Source: Deltaproteobacteria bacterium (GTDB lineage: Bacteria; Desulfobacterota; Desulfobacteria; Desulfobacterales; JAFDMD01). Taken from it: a stretch of 64,000 nucleotides of DNA. Location: NCBI GenBank assembly GCA_019306065.1, contig JAFDMF010000006.1, positions 23,519 to 87,518 of the forward strand, given 5' to 3'. Under the pieces are notes generated by a model, which was given only the letters and a program-made list of their open reading frames with translations, did no database searches and was not told the origin of the DNA. This document shows positions 251 to 53,306 of the stretch, in pieces. Position 1 is the first letter of the stretch, and each line of letters opens with the position of its first letter. The position numbers and the translations under genes were made by a program.

Positions 251-281
251 ACTTTTTTAATAATTTACTACAGGCAACTAT

Positions 282-386
282 TTTATTTTGCTTGAGTTTA
301 CGGCGGATAAAAATTTTAACCGCAGGAATAATAAAAGTATTTCGAGGAATAAAATTTCATCTGCCTCCGAAATCAAGTAAAAAGAA
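282..386 (+). repeat. Family D ERIC/RPE-like palindromic element (eroded ends)
   Basis: Core ggcggataaaaattttaaccgcaggaata-N-gtatttcgagga shared with the copies at 12962, 23697, 30118, 34056 and 53151. Confidence 0.85.
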
Positions 387-410
387 GACCTATTTCTACA
401 GGAATAAATT

Positions 411-1424
411 TTATCTGAAAGGAGGAGCATACATAAGCCCGCCTTCCGTCCATAAAGCGTTAAACCCGCGCTTTATGCCCAGCGAAGTATTTTCGCCTAC
501 ATTCCGCTCAAAAATCTCTCCGTAATTTCCAACCTGTTTTACTATATTGTATGCCCACTTATCACTTAATCCCAAAGCTTCTCCCATTCCGGGAATAACC
601 CCTAAAAAGCGCTTTATTTCCGGATTCTCGCTATTAAGCTTTTTATCTGCATTTGCAGAGGTTATCCCGAATTCTTCGGCGTTGATCAATGCCATTACCG
701 CAAAATTGACAATATCAAACCATTGATCATCTCCATGTCTTACTGCCGGAGCAAGAGGTTCTTTCGATATTATTTCGGGCAGAATTTCATAATCATTCGG
801 ATTAGGAGCTACGGCGCGTTGCCCCGCCAGCTGGGAAGCGTCTGATGTAAGGCAGTCGCATCTTCCGGAAAAAAAAGCTTTGTTTAACTCGGCGCTCTGC
901 TCAATTACAACAGGCTTCCAATCCATTTTGTTAGTACGGAAAAAGTCCGCCACATTCATTTCGGTAGTAGTGCCGGGCAAAACGCATATTGTTGCTCCGC
1001 TCAACTCTTTCGCGCTTTTTATTCCAAGCTTTTTAGGAACCAAAAAACCCTGTCCGTCATAATAATTAACATGAACAAAATTTATTCCGTTGGTTGTCTC
1101 TCTCGTTAGCGTCCGGGTAGTGTTTCGGCATAATACGTCTATCTCTTTGGACTGAAGAGCCGTAAGACGTTGGACAGCAGTTAAAGGAATAAATTCCACT
1201 TTCGAAGTGTCTCCGAATATTGCGGCTGCAATCGCTTTTGCCGTATCAACGTCAAGTCCCTTCCAAACCCCCTTGTCGTTCGGCATGCCAAATCCAAAAA
1301 CAGAACCGTTAACTCCCGCCTTAATATAACCTCTTTTTTTAACCTCGTCTAATGTTCCAGCCGCGCATACTACGGCAAACGCTACCAATACAACCGATAA
1401 CAAAATAGCTTTTAAATAACGCAT
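411..1424 (-). CDS. aapJ: General L-amino acid ABC transporter substrate-binding protein
   Basis: Signal peptide; YYDGQGFLV, ISKEPLAPAVRHGDDQW and C-terminal GGLMYAPPFR typical of AapJ/BztA. Confidence 0.92.
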   Translation of the reverse strand: MRYLKAILLSVVLVAFAVVCAAGTLDEVKKRGYIKAGVNGSVFGFGMPNDKGVWKGLDVDTAKAIAAAIFGDTSKVEFIPLTAVQRLTALQSKEIDVLCRNTTRTLTRETTNGINFVHVNYYDGQGFLVPKKLGIKSAKELSGATICVLPGTTTEMNVADFFRTNKMDWKPVVIEQSAELNKAFFSGRCDCLTSDASQLAGQRAVAPNPNDYEILPEIISKEPLAPAVRHGDDQWFDIVNFAVMALINAEEFGITSANADKKLNSENPEIKRFLGVIPGMGEALGLSDKWAYNIVKQVGNYGEIFERNVGENTSLGIKRGFNALWTEGGLMYAPPFR

Positions 1425-7331: not shown

Positions 7332-7958
7332 TTGAGCAAAACTCAAAAAATAAACAAAATAAAAAGTTGCGCGCAAATATACCTAATAGGATATCGAACC
7401 TCTGGCAAAACTACCGTAGGAAAAACTTTGGCAAAAGCGCTATCCCGCAAATTTATAGACTCCGACAAACAAATCATAAAACAAAACAACATGGACATAG
7501 CGGACATAGTAAAAAAATACGGCTGGGATTTTTTCAGACAACAGGAGAAAACCTTTATCAACTCCATAAATCCTTCGGATAAACTTATAATAGCTTTGGG
7601 AGGCGGAGCTATTATAGATTCCGACAACATAAAAACCGTAAAAAAAAACGGAACCATTATATTCCTTAAAACCTCGCCTGATATTATAAAAAAAAGACTT
7701 AAAAACGATAAAAAAACTTCACAAAACCGCCCTCCCCTTTCAAACGCAAATTCAAGCTGTTTGCATAACGCAGAAAACGGACAAAAGGAGAAGCTATGCA
7801 AACGGGTTACTATTAATGAAGTTGATAAAATACTTACAGAAAGAACGCCCATATACAACAAAGCGTCCGATCTTATAATAAATACCGACAACAAAACAAT
7901 CAAACAAATATGCCAAGAAATAAACAAATGTTTATACCTACCACAAAACAAGAATTAA
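7332..7958 (+). CDS. aroK: Shikimate kinase carrying a 19-aa repeat-derived insertion
   Basis: GYRTSGKTTVG, FRQQE, LGGG, RPPL, ERTPIY; start codon uncertain. Confidence 0.9.
   Translation: MSKTQKINKIKSCAQIYLIGYRTSGKTTVGKTLAKALSRKFIDSDKQIIKQNNMDIADIVKKYGWDFFRQQEKTFINSINPSDKLIIALGGGAIIDSDNIKTVKKNGTIIFLKTSPDIIKKRLKNDKKTSQNRPPLSNANSSCLHNAENGQKEKLCKRVTINEVDKILTERTPIYNKASDLIINTDNKTIKQICQEINKCLYLPQNKN
7752..7808 (+). repeat. Mini family D element inserted in frame in aroK
   Basis: gcataacgcagaaaacggacaaaaggagaagctatgcaa matches the D right arm (cf. reverse complement of 30122-30165, and 49461-49515); ends 7754-7769 / 7793-7808 are 13/16 complementary. Confidence 0.8.
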
Positions 7959-10722: not shown

Positions 10723-11400
10723 CTATTGATCTTTTAAAAAAGTTTCATCTTTAATGCCTGCGGCTATTTTATTCTGAATTTCATACATTAAATCTATAAC
10801 AAGCTTTTTATACTTTTTATAAACCTTATGAGTAACTTTTTCATAAGAAGAAATATCGCCCCCATGAGCGACTGAGTTTCTATACCTTAAAAAATCATAC
10901 ATACAATCTTTTAAGTTCGGGTTTGGATGGTTATAATCTTTCCAATGCGTTTTAAATGGTTTCAAACAAAATGCTTTTAATATTTTATTCAAAACTTCAA
11001 AATTTACATTATTTTTCAAATCGATTTTAGAAGATACGGGATGATATTTATTTGAAAAAAAATCTTTTAATTTTAAGTAAAAACTGATTTTTCCGTTGTC
11101 TTTTTGAGGATATAATTTTAACTGCTTAAAAGTATTTTCCATATGAAAAATTACAATGCTATCTCCAAATTTTTGAAATTCGATCTTTTTTTTGTTCAAT
11201 TCGTCAAGATATAATCTAAAAGCGTTTTGAATAAAACCCTCCCAAATAGAATATATCATTGCTATTGATTGAATTGAAAAAATCTCAAAATGCTTGCGAG
11301 ATAGATTGTATCGTTTTGTAAATACGACCCGTTCTATTTCGAAAAGAGCGCTTTGCCTCTCCTCAATTATTTTTAAAAGTTCATTTTCAAAATCAGACAT
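10723..11400 (-). CDS. HEPN-like nuclease (MAE_28990/RiboL-PSP type)
   Basis: YSIWEGF helix and RNSVAHG (RxxxxH); 6 nt downstream of the DUF262 gene. Confidence 0.8.
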   Translation of the reverse strand: MSDFENELLKIIEERQSALFEIERVVFTKRYNLSRKHFEIFSIQSIAMIYSIWEGFIQNAFRLYLDELNKKKIEFQKFGDSIVIFHMENTFKQLKLYPQKDNGKISFYLKLKDFFSNKYHPVSSKIDLKNNVNFEVLNKILKAFCLKPFKTHWKDYNHPNPNLKDCMYDFLRYRNSVAHGGDISSYEKVTHKVYKKYKKLVIDLMYEIQNKIAAGIKDETFLKDQ

Positions 11401-11406
11401 AACTAT

Positions 11407-12537
11407 CTATTGCTCGCCAAATATTTTGTTAGCCCTTCTTAACCTAGCCCGTATTCTGGTTTTACTATTAGAAGCCACGCCGGAAACCCTTTTAAATTCT
11501 TCGTCATTTTTTAATTTATTTATTTTTGTTTTTAATAATTCAATTTGATCATCATAGCGTTCTATATTTTGCGCTAACCCTATTATGATTCCTTCAAAGT
11601 AAGCAGGCACAAACTGATTTTTATGGTTTCTAAAAACCTTTGCGTCGTCTATGCGTTCAATCATCTTCAAAACTTTATTAAACATTTCTCTATAATATTT
11701 GGGGTCAAATTTACTCTTTTCTACGGCGTTTTTCTGCATAAAATCATTTAAAAATGCCTCCGTATTTTTATTAATTTTTTCTACATTACCTAAATAAGCA
11801 ATAAATCTTAATACTAATTCTTGGTCATAAAGTTCCTGTTTTTTTTGTTTACTCAAATTAGTAAGCTTTTGAAATGCGTCATTGTTACTTATTTCTATAA
11901 TCAACTCATTTATAGTAGAATTTATCCCCCTATAAACAGCGTTTCGTATCTCTTGAGCGGTCGCTTTTGAGCCGCCGGAATTTAATCTTTTAAAAAGCTC
12001 ATATTTCATTACATGACTACTTTCTCCCCGCAATATTTCCACCCTGCAAACAGCTCTTTTTAAATTCATTTTATATTTACTGGGAAGGGTCTCAATATCA
12101 AAGCCTTCTAAACCGGGAATTAAACCGCCTTCTTCCAAAGTCCATTTATTATTTATACTAATCTCTTCTCCATTATCCATCTCTTCTTCATTATCTCTTT
12201 GGAAAACCGACTGTGAAACATTAGTATCTAACTCCCCAAAAAAGCTTATAAAGGTTGAAACTCTTTGCAAGCCGTCAACCAATTCCCAAATTCCATCTTC
12301 ATCCTCTGCCACAAAAATCGGAGGAATGGGAATTGATAGCAATATTGATTCTATAAGCGCCGTTTTTTGTTGTTGATTCCATCTAAAAAAGCGTTGATAT
12401 TCCGGTCTAATAATTAATTCCTTATTTTTATACAGACTAATCAATTCGCCAAAGGAAAGATCCATTCTATCTGCGGAAAGCCTGCCTCTTCCGTTTGAAA
12501 TTTGCTCTTCTAATTCTTTTATTTTTTTTTCGTCCAT
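11407..12537 (-). CDS. DUF262 (ParB-like, GmrS-type) protein
   Basis: PEYQRFFRW, IPPIF, VDGLQR, FKRLNSGG. Confidence 0.88.
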   Translation of the reverse strand: MDEKKIKELEEQISNGRGRLSADRMDLSFGELISLYKNKELIIRPEYQRFFRWNQQQKTALIESILLSIPIPPIFVAEDEDGIWELVDGLQRVSTFISFFGELDTNVSQSVFQRDNEEEMDNGEEISINNKWTLEEGGLIPGLEGFDIETLPSKYKMNLKRAVCRVEILRGESSHVMKYELFKRLNSGGSKATAQEIRNAVYRGINSTINELIIEISNNDAFQKLTNLSKQKKQELYDQELVLRFIAYLGNVEKINKNTEAFLNDFMQKNAVEKSKFDPKYYREMFNKVLKMIERIDDAKVFRNHKNQFVPAYFEGIIIGLAQNIERYDDQIELLKTKINKLKNDEEFKRVSGVASNSKTRIRARLRRANKIFGEQ

Positions 12538-12676
12538 TTTAACCGCTCCTTTTAACCTGCTAATATTCTATAAAAAATTTTTGTTCTTTTTAGTCTGTAT
12601 TAGCAATATATTATTGTCTATTCTCTTACACATAACAAGTCATTTAATTTCTCGCAATAGTGATTTATTATAATCT

Positions 12677-12790
12677 ATGAAGCATATTTTATTTTTCAAA
12701 ATTTACTTGCCAATGAAATAAAAAAACTGCCGTCAAATATCTACCCGCATTATTAAACTTCATTCGCCTATTTCACGAAATAATACCTTT
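12677..12790 (+). pseudogene. Possible small antitoxin remnant (DUF2281-like)
   Basis: With one frameshift reads NLLANEIKKLP-S-KYLPALLNFIRLFHEI, resembling short helical antitoxins. Confidence 0.4.
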
Positions 12791-12961
12791 GTGTCTTTAT
12801 ACCTTTTATCCCTTAACTTTAATATTGAAAAAATAACCGCAACCGATTATTAAATTGATAACTACATTATAAAAAGGATTATAAGCAAAAAAAACCAACT
12901 AAAGTTTAGCGGATAACAATTTCTATTTGCTTTGCGGATAACATAACGATTAATTATAATT

Positions 12962-13105
12962 AATTTCGGCGGATAACAAAGTAATTTGTTTGTTGGCAAG
13001 GCGGATAATAATTTTTAACCGGAGGAATACTTATAGTATTTCGAGGATTAAAAATTGTTATCCAACGCAGTCAACGAGCAAATTACTTTGTTATCCGCCG
13101 AAATT
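12962..13105 (+). repeat. Family D element, complete (144 bp)
   Basis: Perfect 27-bp terminal inverted repeats (12962-12988 / 13079-13105); internal caaggcgg...ccaacgcag and central gaatac-ttata-gtattt hairpin. Confidence 0.92.
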
Positions 13106-13117
13106 TAAAGGAAAATA

Positions 13118-13612
13118 ATGAAACCTACCGATATACTACCAATAGAAAAATGGATTGAACTTGAAAAAGATATATATAATCGCTCAAAGCTTTCGGCTTC
13201 GGTTTTTAACACAGAAGGCATAAGAATTACCGATTATTTTAAATGGCCTAATAAGATATGCCCGGCTATAAAGGCTACGGATAAAGGAAAAAGTTTTATA
13301 TGCGCGACGGCTCATATGAATCTTGCAAATATAGCAAAAAATACAAAAAAATTTGTAATCGAAGAATGCGATGCTGGGCTTGTAAAACTTATAGTTCCGA
13401 TATTTGTTCAAAATAAGTTTATAGGTTCCGTAGGAGCATGCGGGCTTATTTTGGAAGACGGAGAGGTAGATACTTTTGCGATTAATATGATAACCGAAAT
13501 AGAGGAAAAAAAAGCCGAAGAGCTTTCTGCCGGAATAGCTTCGATTTCAAAAAAAAACTTGGAAGAGCTTGCTCAATATATAAAAGCAAGGCTTAAAGCT
13601 ATTATTAAATAG
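13118..13612 (+). CDS. Stand-alone PocR ligand-binding domain protein
   Basis: ICPAIKAT...ICATAH...EECDAGLVKLIVPIF conserved Cys pattern. Confidence 0.8.
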   Translation: MKPTDILPIEKWIELEKDIYNRSKLSASVFNTEGIRITDYFKWPNKICPAIKATDKGKSFICATAHMNLANIAKNTKKFVIEECDAGLVKLIVPIFVQNKFIGSVGACGLILEDGEVDTFAINMITEIEEKKAEELSAGIASISKKNLEELAQYIKARLKAIIK

Positions 13613-13627
13613 TTTCGTAAAAAAACC

Positions 13628-13826
13628 GAGACAGGTTCAAAAAAAATAATAAAGGAATTTATCGCTTCGCTCGAAATGACAGAAAGGAAGTTTTTTTGTT
13701 CCGTCATTTTGACGGATGTTATTTTTACTTGTTATTTCGACGAACGAAGTGATGAGAAATCCCTTAATTAAATTATAAACAGAGGAAATCCCCATCACTA
13801 AAATTAGATACAAAAAGGAATGATTA
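13628..13826. repeat. Mosaic of family B pair and family C
   Basis: B pair at 13654-13681 / 13730-13763 with internal tccgtca/tgacgga hairpin; then aattataaacagaggaaatccccat...caaaaaggaatgatta (family C). Confidence 0.75.
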
Positions 13827-13842
13827 ACAAAGGAGAACTATT

Positions 13843-14235
13843 ATGAAAAAAATTATTTCAACTATAATCTTTGCAGCTTCAATATTTATAAGCGCCTCCG
13901 TATATGCCGGCGAACCGAACGTATATCATGTTGTTTTGGTAGATTTAAAAGACGGAGTTACAGCACAACAGATTGAAGAGATGACAACCGTAGGCAAAGC
14001 GCTTCTTGCAAACATACCCGGAGTTTTGGATATATCAATCAATAAAAAAGCCCGCGAAGATAGAAAAGTTCATATAAAAGATTATGACCTCGGCGTATTG
14101 GTAAAGTGGGAAAACAACAAAACAGGCGATATATACGCGCCTCATGTTTTGCATCAAACATTTTTAAAACTTTACAAAGATATGTTTAAAAGCATAAGAG
14201 TCATAGATTTTTACGGAAACGAAAACCCCAAATAA
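13843..14235 (+). CDS. Exported Dabb (stress-responsive A/B barrel) protein
   Basis: Signal peptide; HVVLV...IPGV...YAPHVLH...IDF. Confidence 0.75.
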   Translation: MKKIISTIIFAASIFISASVYAGEPNVYHVVLVDLKDGVTAQQIEEMTTVGKALLANIPGVLDISINKKAREDRKVHIKDYDLGVLVKWENNKTGDIYAPHVLHQTFLKLYKDMFKSIRVIDFYGNENPK

Positions 14236-14238
14236 TAT

Positions 14239-14281
14239 AATTTTAACAAAGCCCGTTTTTTCAGCGGGCTTTGTTAAAATT
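14239..14281. terminator. Bidirectional terminator between convergent genes
   Basis: aattttaacaaagcccg / cgggctttgttaaaatt perfect 17-bp arms. Confidence 0.8.
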
Positions 14282-15020
14282 TTTCCGCGGCTTTTTCCAA
14301 CAACTTTCTAACTTGTTTATTAAACCAACAGTCAAGAAATATCTCGCTTTTTAGCTTATAATTTTTTTCATACTTATAACAAATCTCTTCAATACGATTC
14401 TCTTTTATCGCCAAAAATGCGGGCTTATACAATTTTGCAATCTTTGCAATCTTTTCTATGACCGCATCTTCCAATTCTTGAAGAGGATAAATTTCATCTA
14501 TAAGTCCTATCTTTTTCGCTTCGCCAAAAGATATAAATTCTCCCGTATAAATCATTTCTTTAGCCTCTCTATCTCCTACGACCTGCCTTAAAATCATATC
14601 CGGCAAATAAGGAACCGGCAGTCCGAGTTTCACCTCGTTTAATCCTATCTTTTTATCGTCAAAAGAGGCAAACCTATAATCGCATGCAAGAGCTAATATA
14701 TTTCCTCCTGCTACTGCATGGCCGGATAAAACACAGGCGGTAGGCATTAAAATTTTAAAAATATCAAAAGTAACATTATTAAATTTATACAAAAAATCTC
14801 TCATTTCAACTCTCGAAAGCTCTAACAGACTCGGCAGATCAAGACCTATGCAGAAAAACTTTTCTCCGCCTGCAAGCAAAAGCCCGTCGGCTTCATCTTT
14901 GACGGCATTCACGGCTTTTGCAAGATCATCTGCAAGCTCGCATGAAATTCCGTTAACAACCCCGTTATTTAATCTTAAAATTGCAATATTTCCGCTCCAT
15001 TCGGTTATAACTTTCGGCAT
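14274..15020 (-). CDS. Enoyl-CoA hydratase/isomerase family protein
   Basis: FCIGLDL, GHAVAGG, ALACDYR, IGLNEVKLG. Confidence 0.9.
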   Translation of the reverse strand: MPKVITEWSGNIAILRLNNGVVNGISCELADDLAKAVNAVKDEADGLLLAGGEKFFCIGLDLPSLLELSRVEMRDFLYKFNNVTFDIFKILMPTACVLSGHAVAGGNILALACDYRFASFDDKKIGLNEVKLGLPVPYLPDMILRQVVGDREAKEMIYTGEFISFGEAKKIGLIDEIYPLQELEDAVIEKIAKIAKLYKPAFLAIKENRIEEICYKYEKNYKLKSEIFLDCWFNKQVRKLLEKAAEKF

Positions 15021-15203
15021 ACGTCCCTCTTTTCAAAGTTAAATTAAAAAGATATTAAAAAAATTTATTTGCTCTTACTTATGCTTAAAATTTTCAAAAG
15101 CGGCGGCTTTTTGACTGCAACCGCACGGATAATAATATAACTGTCTTTTTCAAAAACCGTAGGCATTATTAGGCATTATAATGCTCCTCATAACATAAAA
15201 ACG

Positions 15204-15231
15204 GTAGAGCCATTGCATGCAACCTCTCCAC
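15204..15231. repeat. Family A GTAG-type REP, degenerate
   Basis: gtagagccattgcatgcaacctctccac vs consensus gtagagacgttgcatgcaacgtctctac. Confidence 0.7.
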
Positions 15232-15267
15232 TTTGCAACTTTGTATATTAATAATTTATTCTTCTTA

Positions 15268-16098
15268 TTAAGATAATTCTTCTATAATAATATTTGCCGT
15301 ATTAATCAAAGAATTTGCCGTTAAATTTAAAAAAGGATAAATATCCCCTTTATCCGCTTTATTTAAAGCCGTAAGATATTGTCTACGATTTTCGGTTTTA
15401 ATAATTGCCATAGGATATTTTTGTTTCATTAAAATCAGATTCGTCAAAATCCGCGCTCCTCTACCGTTGCCGTCGTCAAACGGATGTATTCTTACCATAT
15501 TATAATGAGCTGCGGAACTTAAAATTATGGGATGTATTTTGTCAATATTGTCGTTAATAAACCTGCATAAGATTTCCATTTCATCCGCCACATAAATAGG
15601 ATCCGTATAAAAATGAATTGTTCCGTCCATTTGTAAAACATGATTCGGCAAAGTTTTATATTTTCCCGGGGATGCCGGTTTTTGAATTCTTTTACCATGT
15701 TCGTCCATTGCGGACGTCCGTTTTACTCCGAATAAAAGCAAAGCGTTTATCTCTTTTATCAGGCTTTGAGTTACAAGGCGCTTATCTGTTATTACGTCGT
15801 AAAGCAGATTTATTGCTTCGGAATGATTTTTGGCGTCTATAAAATCTTTAAAAGGCTTGCCTTCTACGGTTAATCCTTCTTTTAAAAAAAATAAGGTTTC
15901 GCCCATTGTAAGAGAACTTCCCTCTATTGCATTGGAATTATATGTCCAATCAATGCGCAGCTTTTCTTGAAGCGCCGCCATGCGCTCTTTTTGCAAGGAC
16001 TTTTTATTATCGATTTGGATTTTCAAACTGTCCGCAGTCTCTAATAGTTTTTTTATACCCGCCGAAATTTTTTTTAAATCGTAATAGTTATATTGCAT
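15268..16098 (-). CDS. Fic-domain protein with internal inhibitory motif
   Basis: HPFDDGNGRGAR catalytic motif; SNAIEG (S/TxxxEG) inhibitory helix N-terminal to it. Confidence 0.92.
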   Translation of the reverse strand: MQYNYYDLKKISAGIKKLLETADSLKIQIDNKKSLQKERMAALQEKLRIDWTYNSNAIEGSSLTMGETLFFLKEGLTVEGKPFKDFIDAKNHSEAINLLYDVITDKRLVTQSLIKEINALLLFGVKRTSAMDEHGKRIQKPASPGKYKTLPNHVLQMDGTIHFYTDPIYVADEMEILCRFINDNIDKIHPIILSSAAHYNMVRIHPFDDGNGRGARILTNLILMKQKYPMAIIKTENRRQYLTALNKADKGDIYPFLNLTANSLINTANIIIEELS

Positions 16099-16101
16099 AA
16101 T

Positions 16102-19953: not shown

Positions 19954-20039
19954 AATAACCATTCCTTTTTATAATAAAATGTCGGCTATTATATGATACG
20001 CCCTTTAAAAATCAACCTTTAATTGAGGAGAAATACAAA

Positions 20040-20067
20040 GTAAAGACATTGCATATAACGTCTCTAT
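20040..20067. repeat. Family A REP, degenerate
   Basis: gtaaagacattgcatataacgtctctat. Confidence 0.7.
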
Positions 20068-20183
20068 CGCCTTTCATATCTTACGATTAAAAAATCCCTC
20101 CCCCTTTCCTCCTCTCTTCTTGCAAAAAAACCGTAAAAGAAGTATCTCCGAACAAAACTGCTATATAAAAAAAGGAGATTGTT

Positions 20184-21473: not shown

Positions 21474-23690
21474 ATGATAAATAAGCATAGATTTAAAAAT
21501 GCGGTATCTTTTTTATCCGCACAAGAGATACAAAGACGAAAAAAAGAATTTATTATTATAGCTTCTATTATAGCGATAGTTGCGATTTCCACCTTTATTC
21601 AATTAAAGGTTATACGGCTTGGCACAGACATTCCCATATCAAACGCCATATTAATGTTTATATTAATAGATATAAACGTAATGTTATTAATTTTGCTTCT
21701 GTTTCTGGTATTTAGAAACTTAGTAAAACTTTTATATGATAGAAGCAGAAAAGTTATGGGATCAAAGCTTAGAACAAAGCTTGCGGTATCTTTTATAACA
21801 ATGACCCTTTTGCCTACTACGATTCTTTTTTTTCTTTCTATAAGTTTAATGACAACCAGCATAAAATTTTGGTTCGGCGCGGGCGTAGAGAAGGCTTTGA
21901 ACAACTCTTTATCCGCTGTGGAATCGATTTATGATTATATAGATATAAACAACCGTTTTTATCTTGAAAAAATATCTTATGAAGTTCAAAACAAAAATAT
22001 TTTGAAAAATAATAAAAAAGAGTCGTTAAAAAATTATCTTAAAGATACCTCAAAAAGATTCAATTTAAACGGAGTTGAAATATACGATAAAAACTTTAAG
22101 AGAATCTCTTTTTATGCAAAAGAAAATTTATATCCTATCGGCGCGAAAGATTTCATAAATAAAAAAAATAGTAAGGAGATAAAAACAGTATCTCAAAAAA
22201 CCGAAAAAGGCGAGATAATAAGAATCATATCAACCATACCTTTCGGAGTGGAAAATGATCAGGCAAAAGGTTTTGCCGTAGCTTCCACTGTTTTATCCAA
22301 AGAACTTTCTAATAAAATAAACTCAATATCAAAAGGTTATAAAGAATATCGTCAAATAAAAAAGTTTAAAAAACCTATTAGAAGCGCATATTATATAACC
22401 TTTTCAACCGCCGCGTTTTTGATATTGTTTTCATCTTTATGGCTGGGTTTTCGTCTTGCAAGAACAATAAGCGTTCCTATACATGAGCTTGCAGAAGGCT
22501 TAAAAAAGGTAGCGGGAGGCAATCTTGATATAAAAGTAGAAACGGTTGCAGACGAAGAAATAGGAAGTCTTGTAAATTCTTTTAATAAAATGACAAAAGA
22601 TTTAAAATACGGAAGACAACAGCTTGAAGCGGCAACAAAAAAATTAAAAGAAAGAAACGCGGAAATAGAAGAAAGGCGCCGTTATATGGAAGTAGTTCTT
22701 AAAAATATTTCCGCAGGCATAATATCAATCAACGCGGAAGGAAACGTAGCCACAATAAACAAATCTGCCGAAAAAATGCTTAATCTTTCTGCAAAACAGA
22801 TAATATCTAAAAATTATAAAAAACTGTTAAAGTCCGAACATATCAATCTTGTTAAAGATATCAAAAAAAAAATAAAAACCGAAAATTCTTATATTCTTCC
22901 TATACGCCTTACCATAGAAGGCAAAACAAAAAGCTTTATGACCCATATAACCGCATTAAAAGACGAAGCAAAAAATTTAATAGGCACAGTTATAGTATTT
23001 GACGACCTAACCGAATTGGAAAAAGCCGAAAGAATGGCGGCATGGAGAGAGGTTGCCAGAAGAATAGCTCATGAAGTAAAAAACCCTCTGACCCCCATAA
23101 CCCTTGCGGCTCAGAGATTACAAAGAAAATATTACGAAAAAGTAAAAGAGGTAATATTTTCTGAATGCACTACAACCATAATAGAGCATGTCGAGTTAAT
23201 AAGAAACCTTGTAAACGAATTTTCGGAGTTTGCCCGATTTCCTACGGCAAATCCGAAACCCGAAGATGTTTTACATATAATAGAAGACACCTTAATACCT
23301 TATAAAAATAATCATTTAAACATACGGTTTACTTCTAAAGCAATAAATGAAATCCCCAAAATAAATATAGATAAAAACCAGATAAAACAAGCGTTGATGA
23401 ACCTCTTGACAAATGCAGTTGCCTCAATAGATAAAGCAGGCGAAATAACTGTTTTTATATCTTACGATCCGATATTAAAAAAGATAAAAATAGAGATGGC
23501 AGATAACGGAAAAGGAATACTGGATAACGAAAAAATAAGATTATTCGAGCCGTATTTTTCTACCAAAAAAAAGGGAATGGGACTTGGGCTTGCCATAGTT
23601 AATACAATAATATCGGATCATAACGGAACCATAGGAGTTTATGACAACATTCCGAAAGGAGCGAAGTTTGTTATAGAACTTCCGGTATAA
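21474..23690 (+). CDS. NtrY-like HAMP/PAS sensor histidine kinase
   Basis: TM helices, HAMP, PAS, AAWREVARRIAHEVKNPLTPI, DNGKG, GMGLGL. Confidence 0.9.
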   Translation: MINKHRFKNAVSFLSAQEIQRRKKEFIIIASIIAIVAISTFIQLKVIRLGTDIPISNAILMFILIDINVMLLILLLFLVFRNLVKLLYDRSRKVMGSKLRTKLAVSFITMTLLPTTILFFLSISLMTTSIKFWFGAGVEKALNNSLSAVESIYDYIDINNRFYLEKISYEVQNKNILKNNKKESLKNYLKDTSKRFNLNGVEIYDKNFKRISFYAKENLYPIGAKDFINKKNSKEIKTVSQKTEKGEIIRIISTIPFGVENDQAKGFAVASTVLSKELSNKINSISKGYKEYRQIKKFKKPIRSAYYITFSTAAFLILFSSLWLGFRLARTISVPIHELAEGLKKVAGGNLDIKVETVADEEIGSLVNSFNKMTKDLKYGRQQLEAATKKLKERNAEIEERRRYMEVVLKNISAGIISINAEGNVATINKSAEKMLNLSAKQIISKNYKKLLKSEHINLVKDIKKKIKTENSYILPIRLTIEGKTKSFMTHITALKDEAKNLIGTVIVFDDLTELEKAERMAAWREVARRIAHEVKNPLTPITLAAQRLQRKYYEKVKEVIFSECTTTIIEHVELIRNLVNEFSEFARFPTANPKPEDVLHIIEDTLIPYKNNHLNIRFTSKAINEIPKINIDKNQIKQALMNLLTNAVASIDKAGEITVFISYDPILKKIKIEMADNGKGILDNEKIRLFEPYFSTKKKGMGLGLAIVNTIISDHNGTIGVYDNIPKGAKFVIELPV

Positions 23691-23696
23691 AAGTTT

Positions 23697-23817
23697 TACA
23701 TAACTTCCTATTTTACCCGTTTTTTGCGTTATGCTCAAATTTTAATCCTCGAAATACTTTAAGTATTCCTGCGGTTAAAATTTGAGCAAGCCTTGAAAAT
23801 GAAACAAAACTTTGTTA
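23697..23817 (-). repeat. Family D element followed by octamer tandem repeats
   Basis: aaattttaatcctcgaaatactttaagtattcctgcggttaaaattt; then ctttgtta/ctctgttg/ctttgcca/ctttgtta to about 23843. Confidence 0.85.
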
Positions 23818-23956
23818 CTCTGTTGCTTTGCCACTTTGTTACTCTTTTTAATATTTAATGTTGTTATTTTTAATCTTTTTGATATTTGTATTAACGGCAA
23901 AAAAGTTGTATGCAGCGTCCATCTGTAACTCTATATCTTAATAAAAAATAAAAATT

Positions 23957-25048: not shown

Positions 25049-25089
25049 TTCCTATAAAAACTATTTTATTTTGCTCAAAATTACGGCTT

Positions 25090-25200
25090 TGTCATTTCGA
25101 CGAGCAAAGCAAGAAAAAATACCTTAATTGACTGTGATAAAAAATATATAATCGCAAAAGACGTTGCATGCAACGTCTCTAATTTGCTACTTTGCGTCTT
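25090..25200. repeat. Mosaic of family B half, family A REP (25157-25181) and octamers
   Basis: tgtcatttcgacgagcaaagcaag...aaagacgttgcatgcaacgtctcta...tttgctactttgcgt. Confidence 0.75.
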
Positions 25201-29280: not shown

Positions 29281-30120
29281 ATGAATATAAACGAACCGAA
29301 AATTACCCCCAATCAAATCTTAAAACTTAACGACCAAAATTTTAACCCGCAAAATATATGTATAGTAAGCGGCGCTGGAACCGGCATCGGCAGAGCCGTT
29401 GCAATAGCCGCCGCTTTTAACGGCATTCTTACCGTAGGGCTTGATATTAACGAAGCGGAAGGCGAAAAAACAAAAAAGCTTGCGGAAGATATAGGCGGTA
29501 AATTGGTTTTTATAAAAACCGATCTTGCCAACGACAAAGGTATTGAAACTGCGGTTGAAGAAGCCTCAAAACTCGGAAAAATAAAATTTTTGGCAAACAT
29601 TGCAGGAATACAGCATATTGATCCTATAGAAAACTTTCCTATGGAAAAATATGATCTAATGCAAAAAATAATGCTTCGCGCTCCTTTTTTTTTATCGAAA
29701 CTTGTAATCCCGTATATGAAAAATCAAAACGAACCTTTTGGAGTTATTGCAAACATGGCGTCCGTTCATGCCCATGTATGCACTATTAATAAATCTGTTT
29801 ATAATATTACAAAATTCGGCTTACGCGCGCTTAGCCAATCAATATCTGCGGAAGGAAACGGAAAAATCCGCTCCTTTACCATAAGCTCAGGATTTGTAAA
29901 AACTCCCCTTGCCCTAAACCAAATACCTTCCCAAGCAAAACAGCGCGGAATAACCGCAGAACAGGTTGTAACAGACGTTATGATGGGAAAATCCAGAGTT
30001 AAAGAGATGATGTCTCCCATAGAAGTTGCGAATCTTTTTATCTTCGGATTTTCAAAACATTCAAAATATCTTATAGGAGGAGACCTCTTATTTGACGGAG
30101 GCATGACATTAACATATTAA
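29281..30120 (+). CDS. SDR oxidoreductase, 3-hydroxybutyrate dehydrogenase-like
   Basis: SGAGTGIG, AGIQHIDPIENFP, ASVH, YNITK, FVKTPL. Confidence 0.85.
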   Translation: MNINEPKITPNQILKLNDQNFNPQNICIVSGAGTGIGRAVAIAAAFNGILTVGLDINEAEGEKTKKLAEDIGGKLVFIKTDLANDKGIETAVEEASKLGKIKFLANIAGIQHIDPIENFPMEKYDLMQKIMLRAPFFLSKLVIPYMKNQNEPFGVIANMASVHAHVCTINKSVYNITKFGLRALSQSISAEGNGKIRSFTISSGFVKTPLALNQIPSQAKQRGITAEQVVTDVMMGKSRVKEMMSPIEVANLFIFGFSKHSKYLIGGDLLFDGGMTLTY

Positions 30121-30261
30121 AACCCTTGCATAACTTCTTATTTTGCTCGTTTTCTATGTTATGCTCAAATTTTAATACTCGAAATACTGTGAGTATTACT
30201 GCGTTTAAAATTTAAGCATGCCTTGAAAACAAACAAAATCCTTTGTTATGCAAGGGTCTTA
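30118..30261 (-). repeat. Family D element, complete (144 bp), beginning at the SDR stop codon
   Basis: taaaacccttgcataac / gttatgcaagggtctta, 16/17 complementary, TA at both ends. Confidence 0.88.
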
Positions 30262-30297
30262 TATTAAAACTCTTTGACTGAATTTTAGACGCAAAAA

Positions 30298-30560
30298 AGA
30301 CGTCCAAAGTTTTTTTGCGTAGAGGCTCTTATCGCTGAGGAAATATCCATCATTAAAAAAATTTAATTACAAAAAAGGATGATTATAAAAATAATTAAAA
30401 GATTTCTCCCTTCGGTCTAAATGACAAGCTTCTTCTTTTTGCAGCGTTATTTCGACCGAAGTAATTTTTTTTTGTCATTTCGACAAACGCGGCGAGAAAA
30501 AATCTCTTAATTAACTACGATAAAAAAATATAATCGCAAGAAGCGTTACTTTGTATCTAT
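30298..30560. repeat. Mosaic of E left arm, C, B pair and octamers
   Basis: E 30298-30343; C about 30337-30400; B 30400-30505. Confidence 0.75.
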
Positions 30561-30596
30561 TAACCCATTAACAATTAACTAAAGGAGAAAACTGTA

Positions 30597-31679
30597 ATGA
30601 ACAAAAAAAGACTAATCAACGCCATAACCTTTGCAATAACCCTTCTTTTTCTTTTAACAACCGCTTATGCGGCGGAAAAAGAGAAAAAAATAAAGCTAAA
30701 CGTTCCTATATGCTTTTCTACCGAACTTCCCGGGTTAGGGACAACAATTTCTTGGATTGCAAAAAGAATCGAAACCGCAAGCGCAGGCTCTCTTAAAATG
30801 AAAATATATGAGCCTAATAAACTTGTAGCCCCTTTTGAAATATTAGATTCCGTTTCAACCGGCAAAGTTAATGCAGGGTATTCCGTTTCAGGATACTGGG
30901 CGGGGAAAATATCCGCAGCGCCCATCTTTTCCGCAATTCCGTTCGGACCGGAAGCAGGAGAAATGCTGGCATGGTTATATTATGGAAACGGCTTAAAACT
31001 TTATCAGGAAATGTATAACGCCAATAAATACAATGTGAAAGTTTTGGTATGCGGAATAATTGCGCCGGAAAGTTCCGGATGGTTTTCCAAACCTATTAAT
31101 ACCCCCGAAGATATTAAAGGACTTAGAATAAGATTTTACGGACTTGGCGGACAGGTTATGGAAAAACTCGGAGCTTCCGTAAGCCTTTTGCCCGGCGGCG
31201 AAATATTTCCGGCTCTTGAGAAAAAAGCGCTTGACGCAACCGAATTTTCAACGCCCGCAATAGACGAAAGACTTGGTTTTTATAAAGTTGCAAAATACAA
31301 TTACTTTCCGGGCTGGCATCAGCAAGCAACAGTATTTGAACTACTTATAAATAAAGACGTATGGAACCAAATGAGCAAACATCAGCAGACAGTTATAGAG
31401 ATTCTTTGCAAAGCCGCAACTATGGACTCGTTTGCATATACCGAAGCAATACAATCCAAAGCAATGAAAGAAAACGTTGAAAAACGGGGCGTCCGAAACA
31501 TGTATTGGTCAAAAGAAATGCTTAACGCTTACAAAAAAGCATGGGACGAAGTTGTTGCCGAGCAATCCGCCAAAGACCCATTCTTTAAAAAAGTTTGGGA
31601 CGACGTTAGCGCATTTAGGGCAGATTATAAAATGTGGCAGACTTACGGATTTTTGCCTCGTCCCGAACCGCCGAAATAA
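30597..31679 (+). CDS. dctP: TRAP transporter substrate-binding protein (TakP-like)
   Basis: Signal peptide, GYWAGK, PFGP, GWFSKPI, LRIR, PGGEIFPALE, PGWHQ. Confidence 0.9.
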   Translation: MNKKRLINAITFAITLLFLLTTAYAAEKEKKIKLNVPICFSTELPGLGTTISWIAKRIETASAGSLKMKIYEPNKLVAPFEILDSVSTGKVNAGYSVSGYWAGKISAAPIFSAIPFGPEAGEMLAWLYYGNGLKLYQEMYNANKYNVKVLVCGIIAPESSGWFSKPINTPEDIKGLRIRFYGLGGQVMEKLGASVSLLPGGEIFPALEKKALDATEFSTPAIDERLGFYKVAKYNYFPGWHQQATVFELLINKDVWNQMSKHQQTVIEILCKAATMDSFAYTEAIQSKAMKENVEKRGVRNMYWSKEMLNAYKKAWDEVVAEQSAKDPFFKKVWDDVSAFRADYKMWQTYGFLPRPEPPK

Positions 31680-31689
31680 CTATTAATAA

Positions 31690-31930
31690 TGAGAAAAAAC
31701 GCCCATTATTAAAAAGTATTTAATCACAAAAAAGAATGATTATCCAAAATAATTAAGGGATTTCTCGCTTCGCTCGACAGGACAGGCTTCTATTTTTGCT
31801 ATATTATTGCGATGAATGTTATTTTTGCTTGTAATATCAACGAACGAAGTGAAGAGAAATCTCATAATTATCTGAACTATATAGAGACGTTGCATGCAAC
31901 GTCTCTACTCTCAAACTTTGTATCTTTCTA
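31690..31930. repeat. Mosaic of C, B pair (31757-31863), A REP (31881-31908) and octamers, inside the TRAP operon
   Basis: gggatttctcgcttcgctcgacaggaca; atagagacgttgcatgcaacgtctctac. Confidence 0.8.
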
Positions 31931-33866: not shown

Positions 33867-33909
33867 AAACCTAACGGTATAACGTAAAGCAGTTTTATAT
33901 CTTTTAATG

Positions 33910-33937
33910 GTAAAGACGTTGCATGCAACATCTCTAC
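33910..33937. repeat. Family A REP, followed by family C at about 33985-34056
   Basis: gtaaagacgttgcatgcaacatctctac. Confidence 0.85.
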
Positions 33938-34055
33938 ATAATAGCAATTCGTTAATACGATAAAAATCAGATCAACAAATGAACATCAACTTTGTCACTT
34001 AATTATAAACAGAGAAAACGCCCATTATTTAAAAAATTTAATTGCAAAAAAATAA

Positions 34056-34209
34056 TGTTTAAATTTCGATTTATAACAAAGTAGTTTGTTCAAGTGCAAG
34101 GCGGATAAAAATTTTAACCGCAGGAATACTTAAAGTATTTCGAGGATTAAAATTTTTATCCAACGCCGAAATTGGGCAAACTACGAAGCTATAAATCGAA
34201 ATTTAAACA
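34056..34209 (+). repeat. Family D element, complete
   Basis: Perfect 20-bp ends tgtttaaatttcgatttata / tataaatcgaaatttaaaca; full core. Confidence 0.92.
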
Positions 34210-46714: not shown

Positions 46715-46865
46715 GCCTCTTTTAATAAAGAGATTTCTCCCTTTGCTTGACGGAACGCAAAATAATAAATGGCATGGAATTATAATTGATTGGTTGTGTC
46801 AATAGGAAAATAGATACAAAGGAAGAAAGGGAAGAAGGATGCGGTTTTGCAAGCTATTAATTGCG

Positions 46866-46893
46866 GTAGAGACGTTGCATGCAACGTCTCTAC
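46866..46893. repeat. Family A REP, perfect 28-bp palindrome
   Basis: gtagagacgttgcatgcaacgtctctac. Confidence 0.95.
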
Positions 46894-46921
46894 GATGTTG
46901 TTGTTGCAAAAACTTATTTAA

Positions 46922-48619: not shown

Positions 48620-49357
48620 ATGATAAAAAATGAAGTTATTGAATTTGCAAAGGCAATCGTCCAACCAAAATGGCAAAATCTGCCGAACATATTGGCATTC
48701 ACAACCCTTGCTCAGTTAAACGGAAAAAAATTATCCTTTTCCGGCAATTCAAAAGATTCGATTGAAGCGCGTAAAAATATCCAAAAACTTCTTCAACCCT
48801 GCGCGCCTATAAAATGGCTTAAACAGGTTCACGGCAATCGTATTTTAAGACTGCCGGAAGAAAACAATATTGAAGAAGCAGACGGAGCGGTTACAAATAA
48901 AAAATATATTCCCTGCGTTATACTTACCGCAGACTGCCTGCCGGTAATATTTGCAACGGCAGACGGCAAAGCCGTAGGAGCGGCTCATGCAGGCTGGCGC
49001 GGATTGGTTTCCGGCGTAATTCCAAATACTGTTCGCGCCTTCAATGACAATCCGTCCGCAATATATGTTTGGTTAGGTCCCGCAATAGGATATTTGAGCT
49101 TTGAAGTGGGTTATGAAGTTTATGATCGATTTATCAAATCGGATACGAATAACAAAAAAGCTTTTAAATCCGGCAGACAAGACAAATATTACGCAAACCT
49201 ATACGAATTAGCGCATATGCAGCTTATTAAAGCCGGAGTTAATAAAAACAACATCACTTCTAACGAATACGACACATTTACAAATCCCCTCTTTCATTCC
49301 GCAAGAAGAAACGGAGCGGCAAGCGGCAGAATGGCTACTATTGTAATGATAACATAA
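48620..49357 (+). CDS. pgeF: Peptidoglycan editing factor / purine nucleoside phosphorylase
   Basis: QVHG, TADCLPV, AHAGWRGL, LGPAIG, SARR...GRM. Confidence 0.92.
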   Translation: MIKNEVIEFAKAIVQPKWQNLPNILAFTTLAQLNGKKLSFSGNSKDSIEARKNIQKLLQPCAPIKWLKQVHGNRILRLPEENNIEEADGAVTNKKYIPCVILTADCLPVIFATADGKAVGAAHAGWRGLVSGVIPNTVRAFNDNPSAIYVWLGPAIGYLSFEVGYEVYDRFIKSDTNNKKAFKSGRQDKYYANLYELAHMQLIKAGVNKNNITSNEYDTFTNPLFHSARRNGAASGRMATIVMIT

Positions 49358-49377: not shown

Positions 49378-49515
49378 TTAATACATAAAAAGAATGATTA
49401 TAAAGATAATAAACAGAGGAAACGCCCTTAACTAAAATTAAACGCAAAAAATAATAACAAAATTTTGTTGGATAACGCCGCAAACGGGCAAAATAGGAAG
49501 TTAGCCAACAAAATT
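49378..49515. repeat. Family C duplication plus mini family D (49461-49515)
   Basis: aattttgttggataac / gttagccaacaaaatt (15/16) enclosing only the D right arm; ends in the maf stop codon. Confidence 0.8.
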
Positions 49516-50104
49516 ATCCGGGAACGGCAATTTTTTCTTTTATTAAAATCTCCATTATTTCGCATACGGGTAATCCCAAAACATTAGTATAAGATCCGTT
49601 TATACTTTTTATAAATAACGAACTGGGACCTAAAAGCGAGTAACCGCCGGATTTATCATAAGGTTTGCCGTTATCAAGATAATGGATAATCTCCTTTTCC
49701 GAAATATCTTTGGAGCAAACATAAGTTTTTTCGCATCCTTTAAAACTTTTCTTTTCCGCATAAGAGTTTATGTAATAGCCGGTATAAACGGTATGCATAT
49801 TGCCGCTTAATTTTTTTATCATATCAAAAGCGTCTTGTCTTGATTTCGGCTTGCCAAGTATCTCTTTATCCGCAATTACTATAGTATCTGCCGCTATTAT
49901 CCAAGAATTTGGGTATTTGCTCGCCACTGTTTCGGCTTTTGCGGCGGCAAGCGCTATAGTATAATCTTCCGGTTCGGATACGGGAATTTTTTTTTCGTCA
50001 AACTCGCTCGGTATTACGATAAAATTAAGCCCTACATCTTTTAATAAAACTTTTCTTCTTTTTGATTCTGACGCCAATATTATCTGTTTTTCATTTATAT
50101 ACAT
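49514..50104 (-). CDS. maf: Maf-family NTP pyrophosphatase
   Basis: ILASES.RR, AADTIV, LGKP, DKSGGY, NVLGLP. Confidence 0.93.
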   Translation of the reverse strand: MYINEKQIILASESKRRKVLLKDVGLNFIVIPSEFDEKKIPVSEPEDYTIALAAAKAETVASKYPNSWIIAADTIVIADKEILGKPKSRQDAFDMIKKLSGNMHTVYTGYYINSYAEKKSFKGCEKTYVCSKDISEKEIIHYLDNGKPYDKSGGYSLLGPSSLFIKSINGSYTNVLGLPVCEIMEILIKEKIAVPG

Positions 50105-50138: not shown

Positions 50139-50264
50139 TAGAGAAAACCTCCGTTATTAAGAATACTTAATCACAAAAAATAATAATTATAACCCTATTG
50201 AAAAAGTGGAAAAATCTGTAAAGACGTTGCATGCAACGTCTTTACTTTGTTATAAATCGAAATT
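50139..50264. repeat. Mosaic of C, A REP variant (50218-50245) and lone D terminus (50243-50264)
   Basis: gtaaagacgttgcatgcaacgtctttac; tactttgttataaatcgaaatt is the exact reverse complement of 34062-34083. Confidence 0.85.
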
Positions 50265-52944: not shown

Positions 52945-53150
52945 AATAATAAAAAGCATTTGTGAAATATATATTTTATCCTATATTGTTTTAAAACAAT
53001 TTTATATCTTTATTACAAAATATTTTACGATTTTACAACTTTTACTTTATATCTTATTTTCCTCTGTTTATAATTAAAAAAAATTCCTTGATTATTTCCT
53101 TTACCTTTTTATAATCACCTTTTTGCGTCTAAAAATTTTATTATATTGAT

Positions 53151-53289
53151 ATTTGTTATCCAACAAATCATTTTGTTATTTTTACGGCGCTCGAAAATTC
53201 TAACCGCAGACTTATTAAAAATAAGTCGAAAATTAAAATTTGAGCATAACGCCAAAAATATGCAAAATACTTTGTTAAGAAACCAAATT
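53151..53289 (+). repeat. Family D element, divergent
   Basis: ggcgctcgaaaattctaaccgcagacttat-taaaa-ataagtcgaaaattaaaatttgagcataacgcc. Confidence 0.75.
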
Positions 53290-53306
53290 TTAAAAAGGCA
53301 TTTATA

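Follow-up and report, generated by a model that had tools for sequence, protein, structure and literature searches.

A dispersed family of hairpin repeats with variable, self-complementary ends in a genome of the Desulfobacterales

The window analysed in this work, i.e., the whole stretch of 64,000 nucleotides (nt) to which the positions below refer, comes from a Deltaproteobacteria bacterium of the Desulfobacterales (GenBank assembly GCA_019306065.1, contig JAFDMF010000006.1, positions 23,519 to 87,518 of the forward strand). The genome of this bacterium (hereafter G000) is a 93%-complete metagenome-assembled genome (MAG) of 1.97 Mb in 47 contigs, in which the window occupies C15:23519-87518. 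At positions 12962..13105 the plus strand carries a full-length, 144-nt copy of a hairpin-forming repeat (the focal copy), which R1, the covariance model of this hairpin family, recovered with 139.5 bits on the plus strand (C15:36472-36629). Folded as RNA, the plus strand of the focal copy gave a single long, near-perfect hairpin with 36 consecutive outer pairs and an energy of -82.7 kcal/mol (z = -15.6), and none of 200 shuffled sequences folded as well. The minus strand reached only -63.6 kcal/mol, because several of the pairs are G-U on the plus strand.

The outermost parts of the focal copy (all given for the plus strand) are the left outer arm (12962..12972), a hypervariable 11-nt segment which reads AATTTCGGCGG in this copy, and the right outer arm (13095..13105), its exact complement. 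Inside the former lies the conserved part of the left arm (12973..12997, ATAACAAAG..GTTTGTTGGC), which pairs with positions 13070-13094 and includes two fixed T-G wobble columns. The two sides of the outer internal loop are formed by unpaired motifs: CAAGGCG on the 5' side (12997..13003), which is near-invariant in the order-wide alignment described below and is found also in the betaproteobacterial matches, and CCAACGCAG on the 3' side (13062..13070). The core (13017..13049), consisting of AACCG(C/G)AGG, a 7-bp apical hairpin with a 5-nt loop, and CGAGGATT, is the best-conserved stretch in blastn comparisons across the order (query positions 49-96). Upstream of the focal copy there is a minus-strand gene (11407-12537) encoding a GmrSD restriction endonuclease N-terminal domain (E 5e-25), while the gene downstream (13118-13612), which encodes a PocR sensory domain, starts 12 nt past the right arm and is followed by a gene (13843-14235) for a Dabb stress-responsive barrel. 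DNA near-identical to window positions 11400-16100 was found in sequencing runs labelled as hydrothermal vent metagenome and marine sediment metagenome, and five runs (from two studies) carry at least about half of the sampled words of this region, one of which may be the sample of origin; none of the nine runs listed was an RNA run.

The initial annotation of the window, made from the sequence alone, had listed nine pieces of the family, and all of them were found here; five, i.e., those given at 12962, 23697, 30118, 34056, and (in degenerate form) 53151, are near full length. The second full copy (34054..34209, plus strand, R1 144.9 bits; previously 34056) has the outer arms AAATTTCGATTT, and its interior is close to that of a copy outside the window (C19:34580), from which its outer arms differ at three compensated pairs. 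Another full copy (30113..30268, minus strand, R1 131.1 bits; previously 30118), with the arms TAAGACCCTTGC / GCAAGGGTTTTA, adjoins at its right end the stop codon of a convergent gene. The full-length copy at 23683..23838 (minus strand, R1 99.4 bits; previously 23697) is decayed, with 3 of its 11 outer pairs intact, and the one at 53141..53295 (plus strand, R1 55.8 bits; previously 53151) is degenerate. The remaining pieces, all on the plus strand, are a partial copy without outer arms (255..412, nhmmer model positions 15-118, R1 70.7 bits; previously 282), a right-half fragment (7752..7812), an internal-deletion derivative in which the left outer arm is joined to the right half (49461..49517, nhmmer positions 86-132), and a solo right-arm end, i.e., the last 20 nt of the element (50243..50262), which lies beside an unrelated GC-rich palindrome. 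The counts of paired terminal bases given in that annotation were reproduced as 27/27, 16/17 (for 30118), and 15/16 (for 49461), but the 20/20 given for 34056 should read 19/19 contiguous pairs, including bases just outside the arms.

Iterated nhmmer searches (E ≤ 1e-3) identified 131 loci of the family across the 47 contigs of G000, 55 of them near full length. At the same E-value threshold, R1 gave 103 matches, some of which represent one locus scored on both strands, with about 150 bits on the plus strand versus about 65 on the minus strand at the same loci. The element is small, non-coding, dispersed, and multicopy, as are miniature inverted-repeat transposable elements (MITEs). Of the 131 loci, 18 overlap open reading frames, which were called crudely. 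The copies share a conserved ATAAC...GTTAT frame, two asymmetric internal loops (CAAGGCG / CCAACGC(A/C)G and AACCGCAGG / CGAGGATT), an AT-rich inner stem, the 7-bp apical hairpin with its 5-nt loop, and eleven extra terminal base pairs lying outside the ATAAC...GTTAT frame. The inner modules occur in two or three variants (GGATAA, TTGCGA, and GAAAAA, with the central hairpins GAATAC, GCTTAT, and GAATAG), and within G000 these modules and the ends combine reticulately. It should be added that the repeats break MAG assemblies: many matches were located at a distance of 50-90 nt from the end of a contig, and the Logan contigs of four DNA runs terminated at the element, none of them joining across a copy.

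The initial annotation had proposed that the ends of the element diverge between copies but remain complementary within each copy, and the 55 near-full copies bear this out genome-wide. Among their left outer 11-mers, 49 are distinct, with a mean pairwise difference of 4.9 of 11 positions. Nevertheless, the outer arms form on average 8.4 of 11 Watson-Crick pairs with their own partner versus 6.1 with the partners of other copies, a value not reached in any of 5000 partner shuffles, and the same excess for the own partner was observed in the middle stems, the inner stem, and the central hairpin. When the 37 copies with at least 8 of 11 outer pairs were compared (unpaired positions being masked), at least 24 mutually incompatible paired end types were distinguished, the largest group numbering four copies, and two such copies differ on average at 3.0 fully compensated pairs. 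Moreover, seven copies with an identical 27-nt core pattern have seven different ends. The central hairpin was likewise found to covary in G000, as had been suggested, with pair counts of A-T 41 versus C-G 8, A-T 39 versus T-A 11, and C-G 27, T-A 16, and G-C 5, all such column-wise counts resting on MAFFT alignments. The remark that inner mismatches are often G-T holds for three fixed wobble columns, which account for 126 of the 246 G-T cells; elsewhere there is no bias (G-T 120 versus A-C 134).

Because of this number of incompatible end types and the small size of the largest group, the ends of G000 copies do not fall into a few fixed subfamilies; it was such subfamilies, each with its own transposase, that the initial annotation had named as speaking against its proposal. 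A different picture was obtained for a sister lineage carrying the same family (other MAGs, found by the core pattern), in which the outer 11 nt are essentially invariant: GAGCCACTTTC is shared by 16 of 21 copies, and the mean difference is 0.57. The terminal inverted repeats of classical MITEs are conserved in sequence; in G000 inverted repeats are present, and their terminal 11 nt differ. The contrast with a classical MITE drawn earlier is thus valid for the genus studied here and invalid for the sister lineage, whose copies behave like those of a classical MITE, so that the hypervariable ends are an oddity of the genus studied here.

To look beyond one genome, an alignment (A1) of 36 order-wide sequences was compiled from three window copies and 33 representatives less than 85% identical. 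The arms are wholly different across lineages, yet they always pair. RNAalifold predicted 47 consensus pairs for A1, 34 of which were changed on both sides, and 91.9% of the cells were paired, as compared with 74.6% after shuffling and 30-52% in slid controls. The covariation score was 0.471 versus 0.170 for shuffled alignments (none of 500 shuffles reached the observed value; slid controls gave 0.08-0.17), the apical hairpin of A1 being invariant only because the sequences were selected on it. The covariation anticipated in the initial annotation is therefore significant both within G000, by the partner shuffles, and across the order.

The family is also asymmetric with respect to strand. In A1, G-U cells outnumber A-C cells 148 to 23, and still 75 to 21 when the three fixed wobble columns are left out; 34 of the 36 representatives fold better on the plus strand (mean energies -62.5 versus -48.4 kcal/mol). 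The plus strand is the better folder in 42 of the 55 G000 copies as well, which there rests on three inherited wobble columns. Two further observations concern the placement of the plus strand in G000: in 49 of 76 copies (p 0.015) it coincides with the strand that is locally richer in C, a weak tendency in a noisy local skew, from which we draw no conclusion, and no relation was seen to the strand carrying the majority of the local genes. Rfam 15 yielded no match at the gathering score in the window, only sub-threshold matches of generic hairpin (miRNA) type being found at the element, and no match in six betaproteobacterial and Neisseria loci.

Insertion sites were analyzed with the use of two congeners of G000 (hereafter G001 and G002), in which 64 loci around copies were examined for flanks mapping to G000. 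This search for empty orthologous sites, recommended in the initial annotation, provided one clean case: a 144-nt insert in G002 (locus L194) corresponds to a continuous, empty sequence in G000 (C3:7771/7773), which contains neither a hairpin nor arm sequence and in which the downstream ribosome-binding site is already there. At several other sites a copy is present in a congener and no element was detected at the G000 junction. At a second site, the empty sequence already contains the AAAYTTAAAC-GGAGG box, which is often found after the right arm of copies, and at a third one the whole leader, including the Shine-Dalgarno sequence, was replaced. In G001, the loop of another hairpin, GGCTGCCT..AGGCAGCC, harbours a nested copy; at this site G000 has a different hairpin, which is terminator-like. 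The comparisons L150/C29, L175/C11, L163/C19, L147/C13, L143/C24, and L171/C47 gave no empty site, as the intergenic regions were wholly replaced or contained a remnant or a different copy, and comparison of window positions 29300-31100 with G001 and G002 returned only other repeat copies without orthologous flanks.

As far as gene context is concerned (based on the same crude calls of open reading frames), the right end is in every case the gene-proximal end. In 22 of the 55 full copies the element ends -19 to 35 nt before a same-strand start; another 21 abut the stop of a convergent gene (within -3 to +4 nt in 17 cases, and with the stop 16-24 nt inside the arm in 4), and 12 lie farther from genes. 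Where the neighbouring genes are in tandem, 20 of 28 full copies (p 0.036) and 42 of 67 copies of any length (p 0.05) have their plus strand in the direction of transcription. Promoter and terminator scans gave no more matches than expected from shuffled sequences (2 vs. 1.7-1.9).

Several other repeats were noticed in the window. A GC-rich perfect palindrome, GAGACGTTGCATGCAACGTCTC, is present in eight copies in the window (15196-15238, 20032-20074, 25147-25189, 31873-31915, 33902-33944, 46858-46900, 50210-50252, and 55469-55511), the one at 50210-50252 standing directly against the solo right-arm end of the hairpin family. A third family, composed of GGGATTTCTC..CTTCGCTCGAAATGACA and TGTCATTTCGACGA(A/G)CGAAG..GAGAAATCCC, the halves of which look like inverted partners, occurs at 13628-13784, 25088-25144, 30373-30527, 31731-31884, and 1667-1720, often in the same intergenic regions as the hairpin repeat. 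Many left arms are preceded by a box, AAACAGAGGAAA-CGCCC-ATTATTAAAAAATTTAATCACAAAAAAGAATGAT (34000-34060, 49356-49455, 31681-31759, and 50128-50206), and a related box, TTTAAACAGAGGAAA, follows many right arms just ahead of start codons; there are also tandem arrays in which the left half of the element is joined to the upstream box at GGAG|GAAA.

The fate of copies residing at their sites was then followed. For outer arms that started out perfect and have since decayed as fast as the conserved interior columns, 1.8 mismatches per 11 positions would be predicted, while the mean observed was 2.6. At one site (C28), copies of three species have an identical or near-identical right half and different left halves, the G000 copy being badly paired; at another (C27), the copies of G000 and G001 are of different inner types within the same boundaries; and at a third (C2), arm pairing has been lost in the G002 copy and kept in that of G000. 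The focal copy differs from its G002 orthologue (L155) at nine positions, each of which leaves the G000 hairpin better paired. It should be stressed that G000 and G002 have a recombination breakpoint just where the focal element lies (12954-13111), the left flank showing 2 differences in 1500 nt and the right flank being 89% identical, and that the G002 orthologue may be a chimera. An extra partial copy (positions 53-144) abuts the full one at L155 of G002. In the C26 orthologue pair, three pairs were changed on both sides and a 3-nt loop was closed; the unusual arm variant concerned is found also at other loci, so inter-copy transfer explains this change.

Deletion products occur as well, i.e., arm-only mini-hairpins, core-less versions, and tandem arrays of left halves. 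Perfect arm-only mini-hairpins and a version lacking only the core were located in G000 at C7:15641-15686, C19:139399-139443, C19:126081-126108, and C7:11978-12056, and both kinds of derivative have the appearance of products of deletion between short direct repeats (TTTGTT; CAA) within the element. Taken as a whole, resident copies seem to undergo decay and recombination instead of having their pairing preserved in situ. The statement of the initial annotation that structure and not end sequence is maintained is consequently sound insofar as pairing is kept in G000 without conservation of the end sequence, and is to be qualified in that no active upkeep of that pairing is apparent in resident copies. 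In other MAGs, a short extra element (AGCGCTAAAGCTTCACT..GTGC), a putative nested mini-insertion with a fixed target, interrupts the hairpin repeat directly behind CGAGGAT and in some cases flanks the core on either side (loci L025, L030, L032, L034, L050, L074, L083, L089, L093, L097, L113, and L123).

The distribution of the family extends well beyond the genus. The core or the family was found by blastn in 21 of 41 order-level relatives, and the exact core pattern in at least 127 stretches; the titles among the matches listed are of Desulfobacterales or Thermodesulfobacteriota type or those of generic proteobacterial MAGs. In a set of 121 genomes drawn evenly from the phylum, R1 detected the family in 17, of which 15 are from outside the order, in 1 to at least 24 copies. 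No viral contig matched the core pattern. A scan for three motifs of the window with shorter spacing, for which about 140 chance matches were expected, additionally gave 13 Neisseria and two Bergeriella loci, as well as a run of Comamonadaceae loci of constant length. The R1 scores of loci preselected for the three motifs (30-43 bits on the loci of Correia elements, CREE) are biased, since preselection inflates them, and whole genomes were therefore searched without it. R1 gave three matches in Variovorax (E about 3e-8; two of them not preselected), 14 in Ottowia, and one in Comamonas. A single match in Bergeriella (E 1.5e-5) was a new locus with a Correia-like element, while eight matches in a Neisseria sp. 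MAG, six of them at E ≤ 1.5e-4, represent a different, non-classical element. There was no match in N. sicca at E ≤ 0.01, and none at E ≤ 1 in Neisseria sp. GT4A_CT1 or in E. coli K-12 MG1655.

The betaproteobacterial matches, those in Variovorax, Ottowia, and Comamonas among them, carry the core GCAAGGCG..AACCGCAGG(G/A)ATAC-loop-GTAT..CGAGGATT..CAACGCCG, in which CGAGGATT is present though it was absent from the search pattern; the core is thus conserved across phyla. Their arms are GC-rich and unrelated to those of the Desulfobacterota, and they form long, covarying hairpins, with 92.4% of the cells paired and a covariation score of 0.585 versus 0.147 in alignment A2, which was fitted to the model.

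We consider that the element is best described as a non-coding, non-autonomous mobile hairpin repeat, MITE-like and of a Correia-like build, the centre of which is constrained in sequence while its arms need only pair; we give this reading a probability of about 0.5. The constrained centre would be formed by the loops CAAGGCG / CCAACGC and AACCGCAGG / CGAGGATT around the short apical hairpin, this core being presumably read by some mobilising or processing factor, and propagation would require the hairpin. In this genus, the terminal 11 bp or so may drift freely under the pairing constraint in the lineages giving rise to new copies, so that each insertion would have frozen a different self-complementary end. 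New insertions would be born nearly perfect and decay later, losing internal segments between short direct repeats and exchanging halves with other copies. The excess of G-U over A-C at the family level points to a stage in which the plus strand is single-stranded (DNA or RNA), and a one-strand constraint of this kind, as far as can be read from sequence, would so shape the lineages founding new copies without being felt by resident ones. Template switching at the DNA level probably contributes, but it cannot account for everything, given the persistence of the asymmetric loops and wobble columns.

Several results weigh against this reading. The correlation between arm mismatches and interior divergence is weak (Spearman 0.25, p 0.064). 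The 27 least-diverged copies of G000 show no excess of G-U (44 versus 52 A-C), and in view of this lack of strand bias within the genome the asymmetry of the family may rest on a limited number of lineage-fixed wobbles. No consistent target duplication was found: the one clean site shows an overlap of 3 nt (GAA/TTC), L197/C11 is ambiguous because of an A run, and the other sites are rearranged. The presence/absence differences could reflect precise loss instead of gain. Finally, a linked transposase gene, for which the initial annotation suggested looking, was not found for the family in G000, either in split copies or among the families Y1_Tnp, DDE_3, DDE_Tnp_1, rve, and IS110: no split copy encloses a transposase (the sole pair of split halves encloses a glycosyltransferase), and DDE_3, DDE_Tnp_1, rve, and IS110 give no match in this 93%-complete MAG. 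Insertion sequences often fail to assemble in MAGs. The sole match to a Y1 (IS200/IS605-type) transposase in G000 (C14:96579-96902) contains an internal TAA stop, and Y1_Tnp was not found in G002, where blastn gives 60 matches to the element; being present in 38 of the 41 relatives regardless of the repeat, Y1_Tnp does not discriminate carriers.

Other explanations were weighed against the mobile hairpin repeat. The placement of the right end beside a gene end (before starts in 22 and at convergent stops in 21 of the 55 full copies) and the co-orientation of the plus strand with transcription suggest that the repeat could act as a structured RNA of the host (serving as a leader at the 5' end, as a stabiliser or terminator at the 3' end, or as a site of RNase III-type processing), in which each resident stem would be kept paired by selection while drifting in sequence. 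The family-level excess of G-U on the plus strand and the GC-rich stem followed by a T run in which some copies end would fit such a role, and there is a precedent in bcr1 of the Bacillus cereus group, which is reported to be transcribed and to show compensatory changes (PMC3184786). Nonetheless, the behaviour of resident copies lends this role no support and makes it rather unlikely: they are not paired beyond neutral expectation and have no preference for G-U over A-C, orthologous copies decay or are chimeric with broken pairing, and the 21 copies at convergent genes would place the weaker minus strand in the mRNA of that gene. Furthermore, Rfam contains no such family, promoter-like matches do not exceed chance, and covariation within a repeat family is by itself no proof of a host RNA function. 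Complementary arms might also be kept without any function by selection-free DNA processes, i.e., template switching in quasi-palindromes or correction of mismatches in extruded hairpins, together with gene conversion of whole elements. Template switching is an established mechanism, which creates and repairs perfect stems in one event (PMC8794818), and in agreement with it the compensated differences are of transversion type (1439) nearly as often as of transition type (1613), unlike what would be predicted if G-U pairs served as stepping stones. The nine better-pairing differences of the focal copy, the C26 pair, the reticulate combination of modules, and replacement at the same site point in the same direction. 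However, the focal case is confounded by the recombination breakpoint and C26 is explained by inter-copy transfer; nearly all copies, also across the order, have preserved the asymmetric loops and three wobble columns, so any homogenisation of arms is local and leaves these intact; the mean arm mismatch is not below neutral expectation; and the sister lineage, which has the same long hairpin, keeps fixed ends. As a sufficient account, this explanation seems to us improbable.

The arms might also be derived from the target, if a shorter core were inserted into the loops of pre-existing hairpins (e.g., terminators) so that the ends of each copy were halves of a host hairpin. In this respect, in some copies a GC-rich stem stands between an A run and a T run, as in bidirectional terminators, one G001 copy does lie in the loop of a hairpin, and short arm-only hairpins exist. 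Yet the G001 copy carries arms of its own within the stem of its host hairpin, deletions between the TTTGTT direct repeats account for the arm-only hairpins, and the variable ends can be aligned and contain fixed positions (AA....G..G.ATAAC); since the clean empty site C3:7771/7773 has neither a hairpin nor arm sequence, a target origin of the arms is rejected for that insertion, and we regard it as very unlikely in general. Even less credible is a classical MITE with few end subfamilies, each mobilised by its own transposase. Although the inner modules occur in only two or three variants and the sister lineage has fixed ends, the modules combine reticulately and no intact transposase of the five families tested was found in G000. 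Such a MITE is contradicted by the 49 distinct ends among 55 copies, the minimum of 24 paired types with no group larger than four, and the seven ends found on one core pattern.

Beyond the mobile hairpin repeat itself, the occurrence of the core outside the phylum raises the possibility, which we put forward only tentatively and regard as doubtful at present, that the Desulfobacterota repeats, the multi-copy hairpins found in Comamonadaceae, and Neisseriaceae elements (perhaps with Correia elements among them) form one cross-phylum superfamily, defined by an asymmetric core of about 50 nt (GCAAGGCG - stem - AACCGCAGG - hairpin - CGAGGATT - stem - CAACGCCG) that is recognised by a factor reading structure. 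Such a factor might cut or join at the base of an arbitrary duplex, or process RNA, and because it would read structure, the terminal sequence would be free to evolve. If true, the superfamily would give a comparative handle on what moves Correia-type elements and would illustrate how, in nature, geometry and not sequence can define the ends of a transposon-like element. Hairpin repeats such as Correia elements, ERIC, and bcr1 have been known for decades. The family described here offers a strong within-genome case, a sister lineage with fixed ends as an internal control, and a core traceable across the order, the phylum, and into Betaproteobacteria, which makes feasible a phyletic search for the partner protein and the separation of selection on structure from the bookkeeping of template switches.

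Comparison with known systems started from ERIC, to which the unpaired motifs had been likened in the initial annotation. ERIC, which a review table lists among the MITEs, occupies transcribed intergenic regions and forms an imperfect palindrome about 127 bp long. The likeness ends there: no resemblance in sequence was detectable, as blastn against 5,426 E. coli genomes gave no match at E ≤ 1 and R1 none in K-12. As regards the REP elements and their RAYT transposases, HUH/Y1 enzymes act on single-stranded hairpins, and such an action would fit the one-strand constraint. However, REP units are about 20-40 nt long and conserved in sequence, in contrast to a single 144-nt hairpin with variable ends, and Y1_Tnp, as described above, is broken in G000, not found in G002, and distributed among the relatives regardless of the element. 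REP sequences and REPINs are structure-forming intergenic repeats with long vertical persistence (bioRxiv 10.1101/2021.07.10.451892). The bcr1 element is a MITE-like repeat of about 155 bp with a variable genomic distribution, in which compensatory base-pair changes are reported to keep the double-stranded structure, its stability having been lost repeatedly in some strains (PMC3184786). Compared by description only, bcr1 differs in the phylum of its host and in having 5-bp flanking direct repeats, which were not seen in the hairpin family. Integron attC sites are folded single strands with extra-helical bases, recognised by their structure and not by their sequence. They nevertheless conserve the outer boxes and vary in the centre, which is the reverse of the situation in the hairpin family, and they form arrays in the same orientation, whereas the hairpin copies are dispersed in both orientations.

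Among these systems, the hairpin family is closest in build to the Correia elements of Neisseria (CREE/NEMIS), for which we know of no transposase. Both are non-coding, long-hairpin repeats of about 105-155 bp located beside genes. The N. sicca locus L226, which starts with tatagtggattaaatttaaatcaggacaa, a published variant of the 26-bp Correia repeat (PMC5039591), contains CAAGGCG, CCGCAG, a short hairpin with a 5-nt loop, CGAG, and CAACGCCG in the same order as the hairpin family. On the other hand, CREE lack the AT-rich inner stem (AAAATTTTAA / TTAAAATTT); the 26-bp terminal repeat (tatagtggatta...; PMC5039591) is not found in the hairpin family, the arms of which are of the AAATTTCGNNGGATAAC type; and the ends of Correia elements are reported to be conserved, as opposed to the hypervariable ends seen here. 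Judged from these sequence features, homology of the two is plausible.

No published description of the hairpin family was found in the literature on repeats of Desulfobacterales and Desulfobacterota. Hairpin-forming, MITE-like repeats as such are already known, and compensatory change within them has its precedent in bcr1 (PMC3184786). What is new is the degree to which the ends vary while retaining their pairing within one genome, as against the fixed ends of the sister lineage, and the core that links repeats of Desulfobacterota, Comamonadaceae, and some Neisseriaceae.

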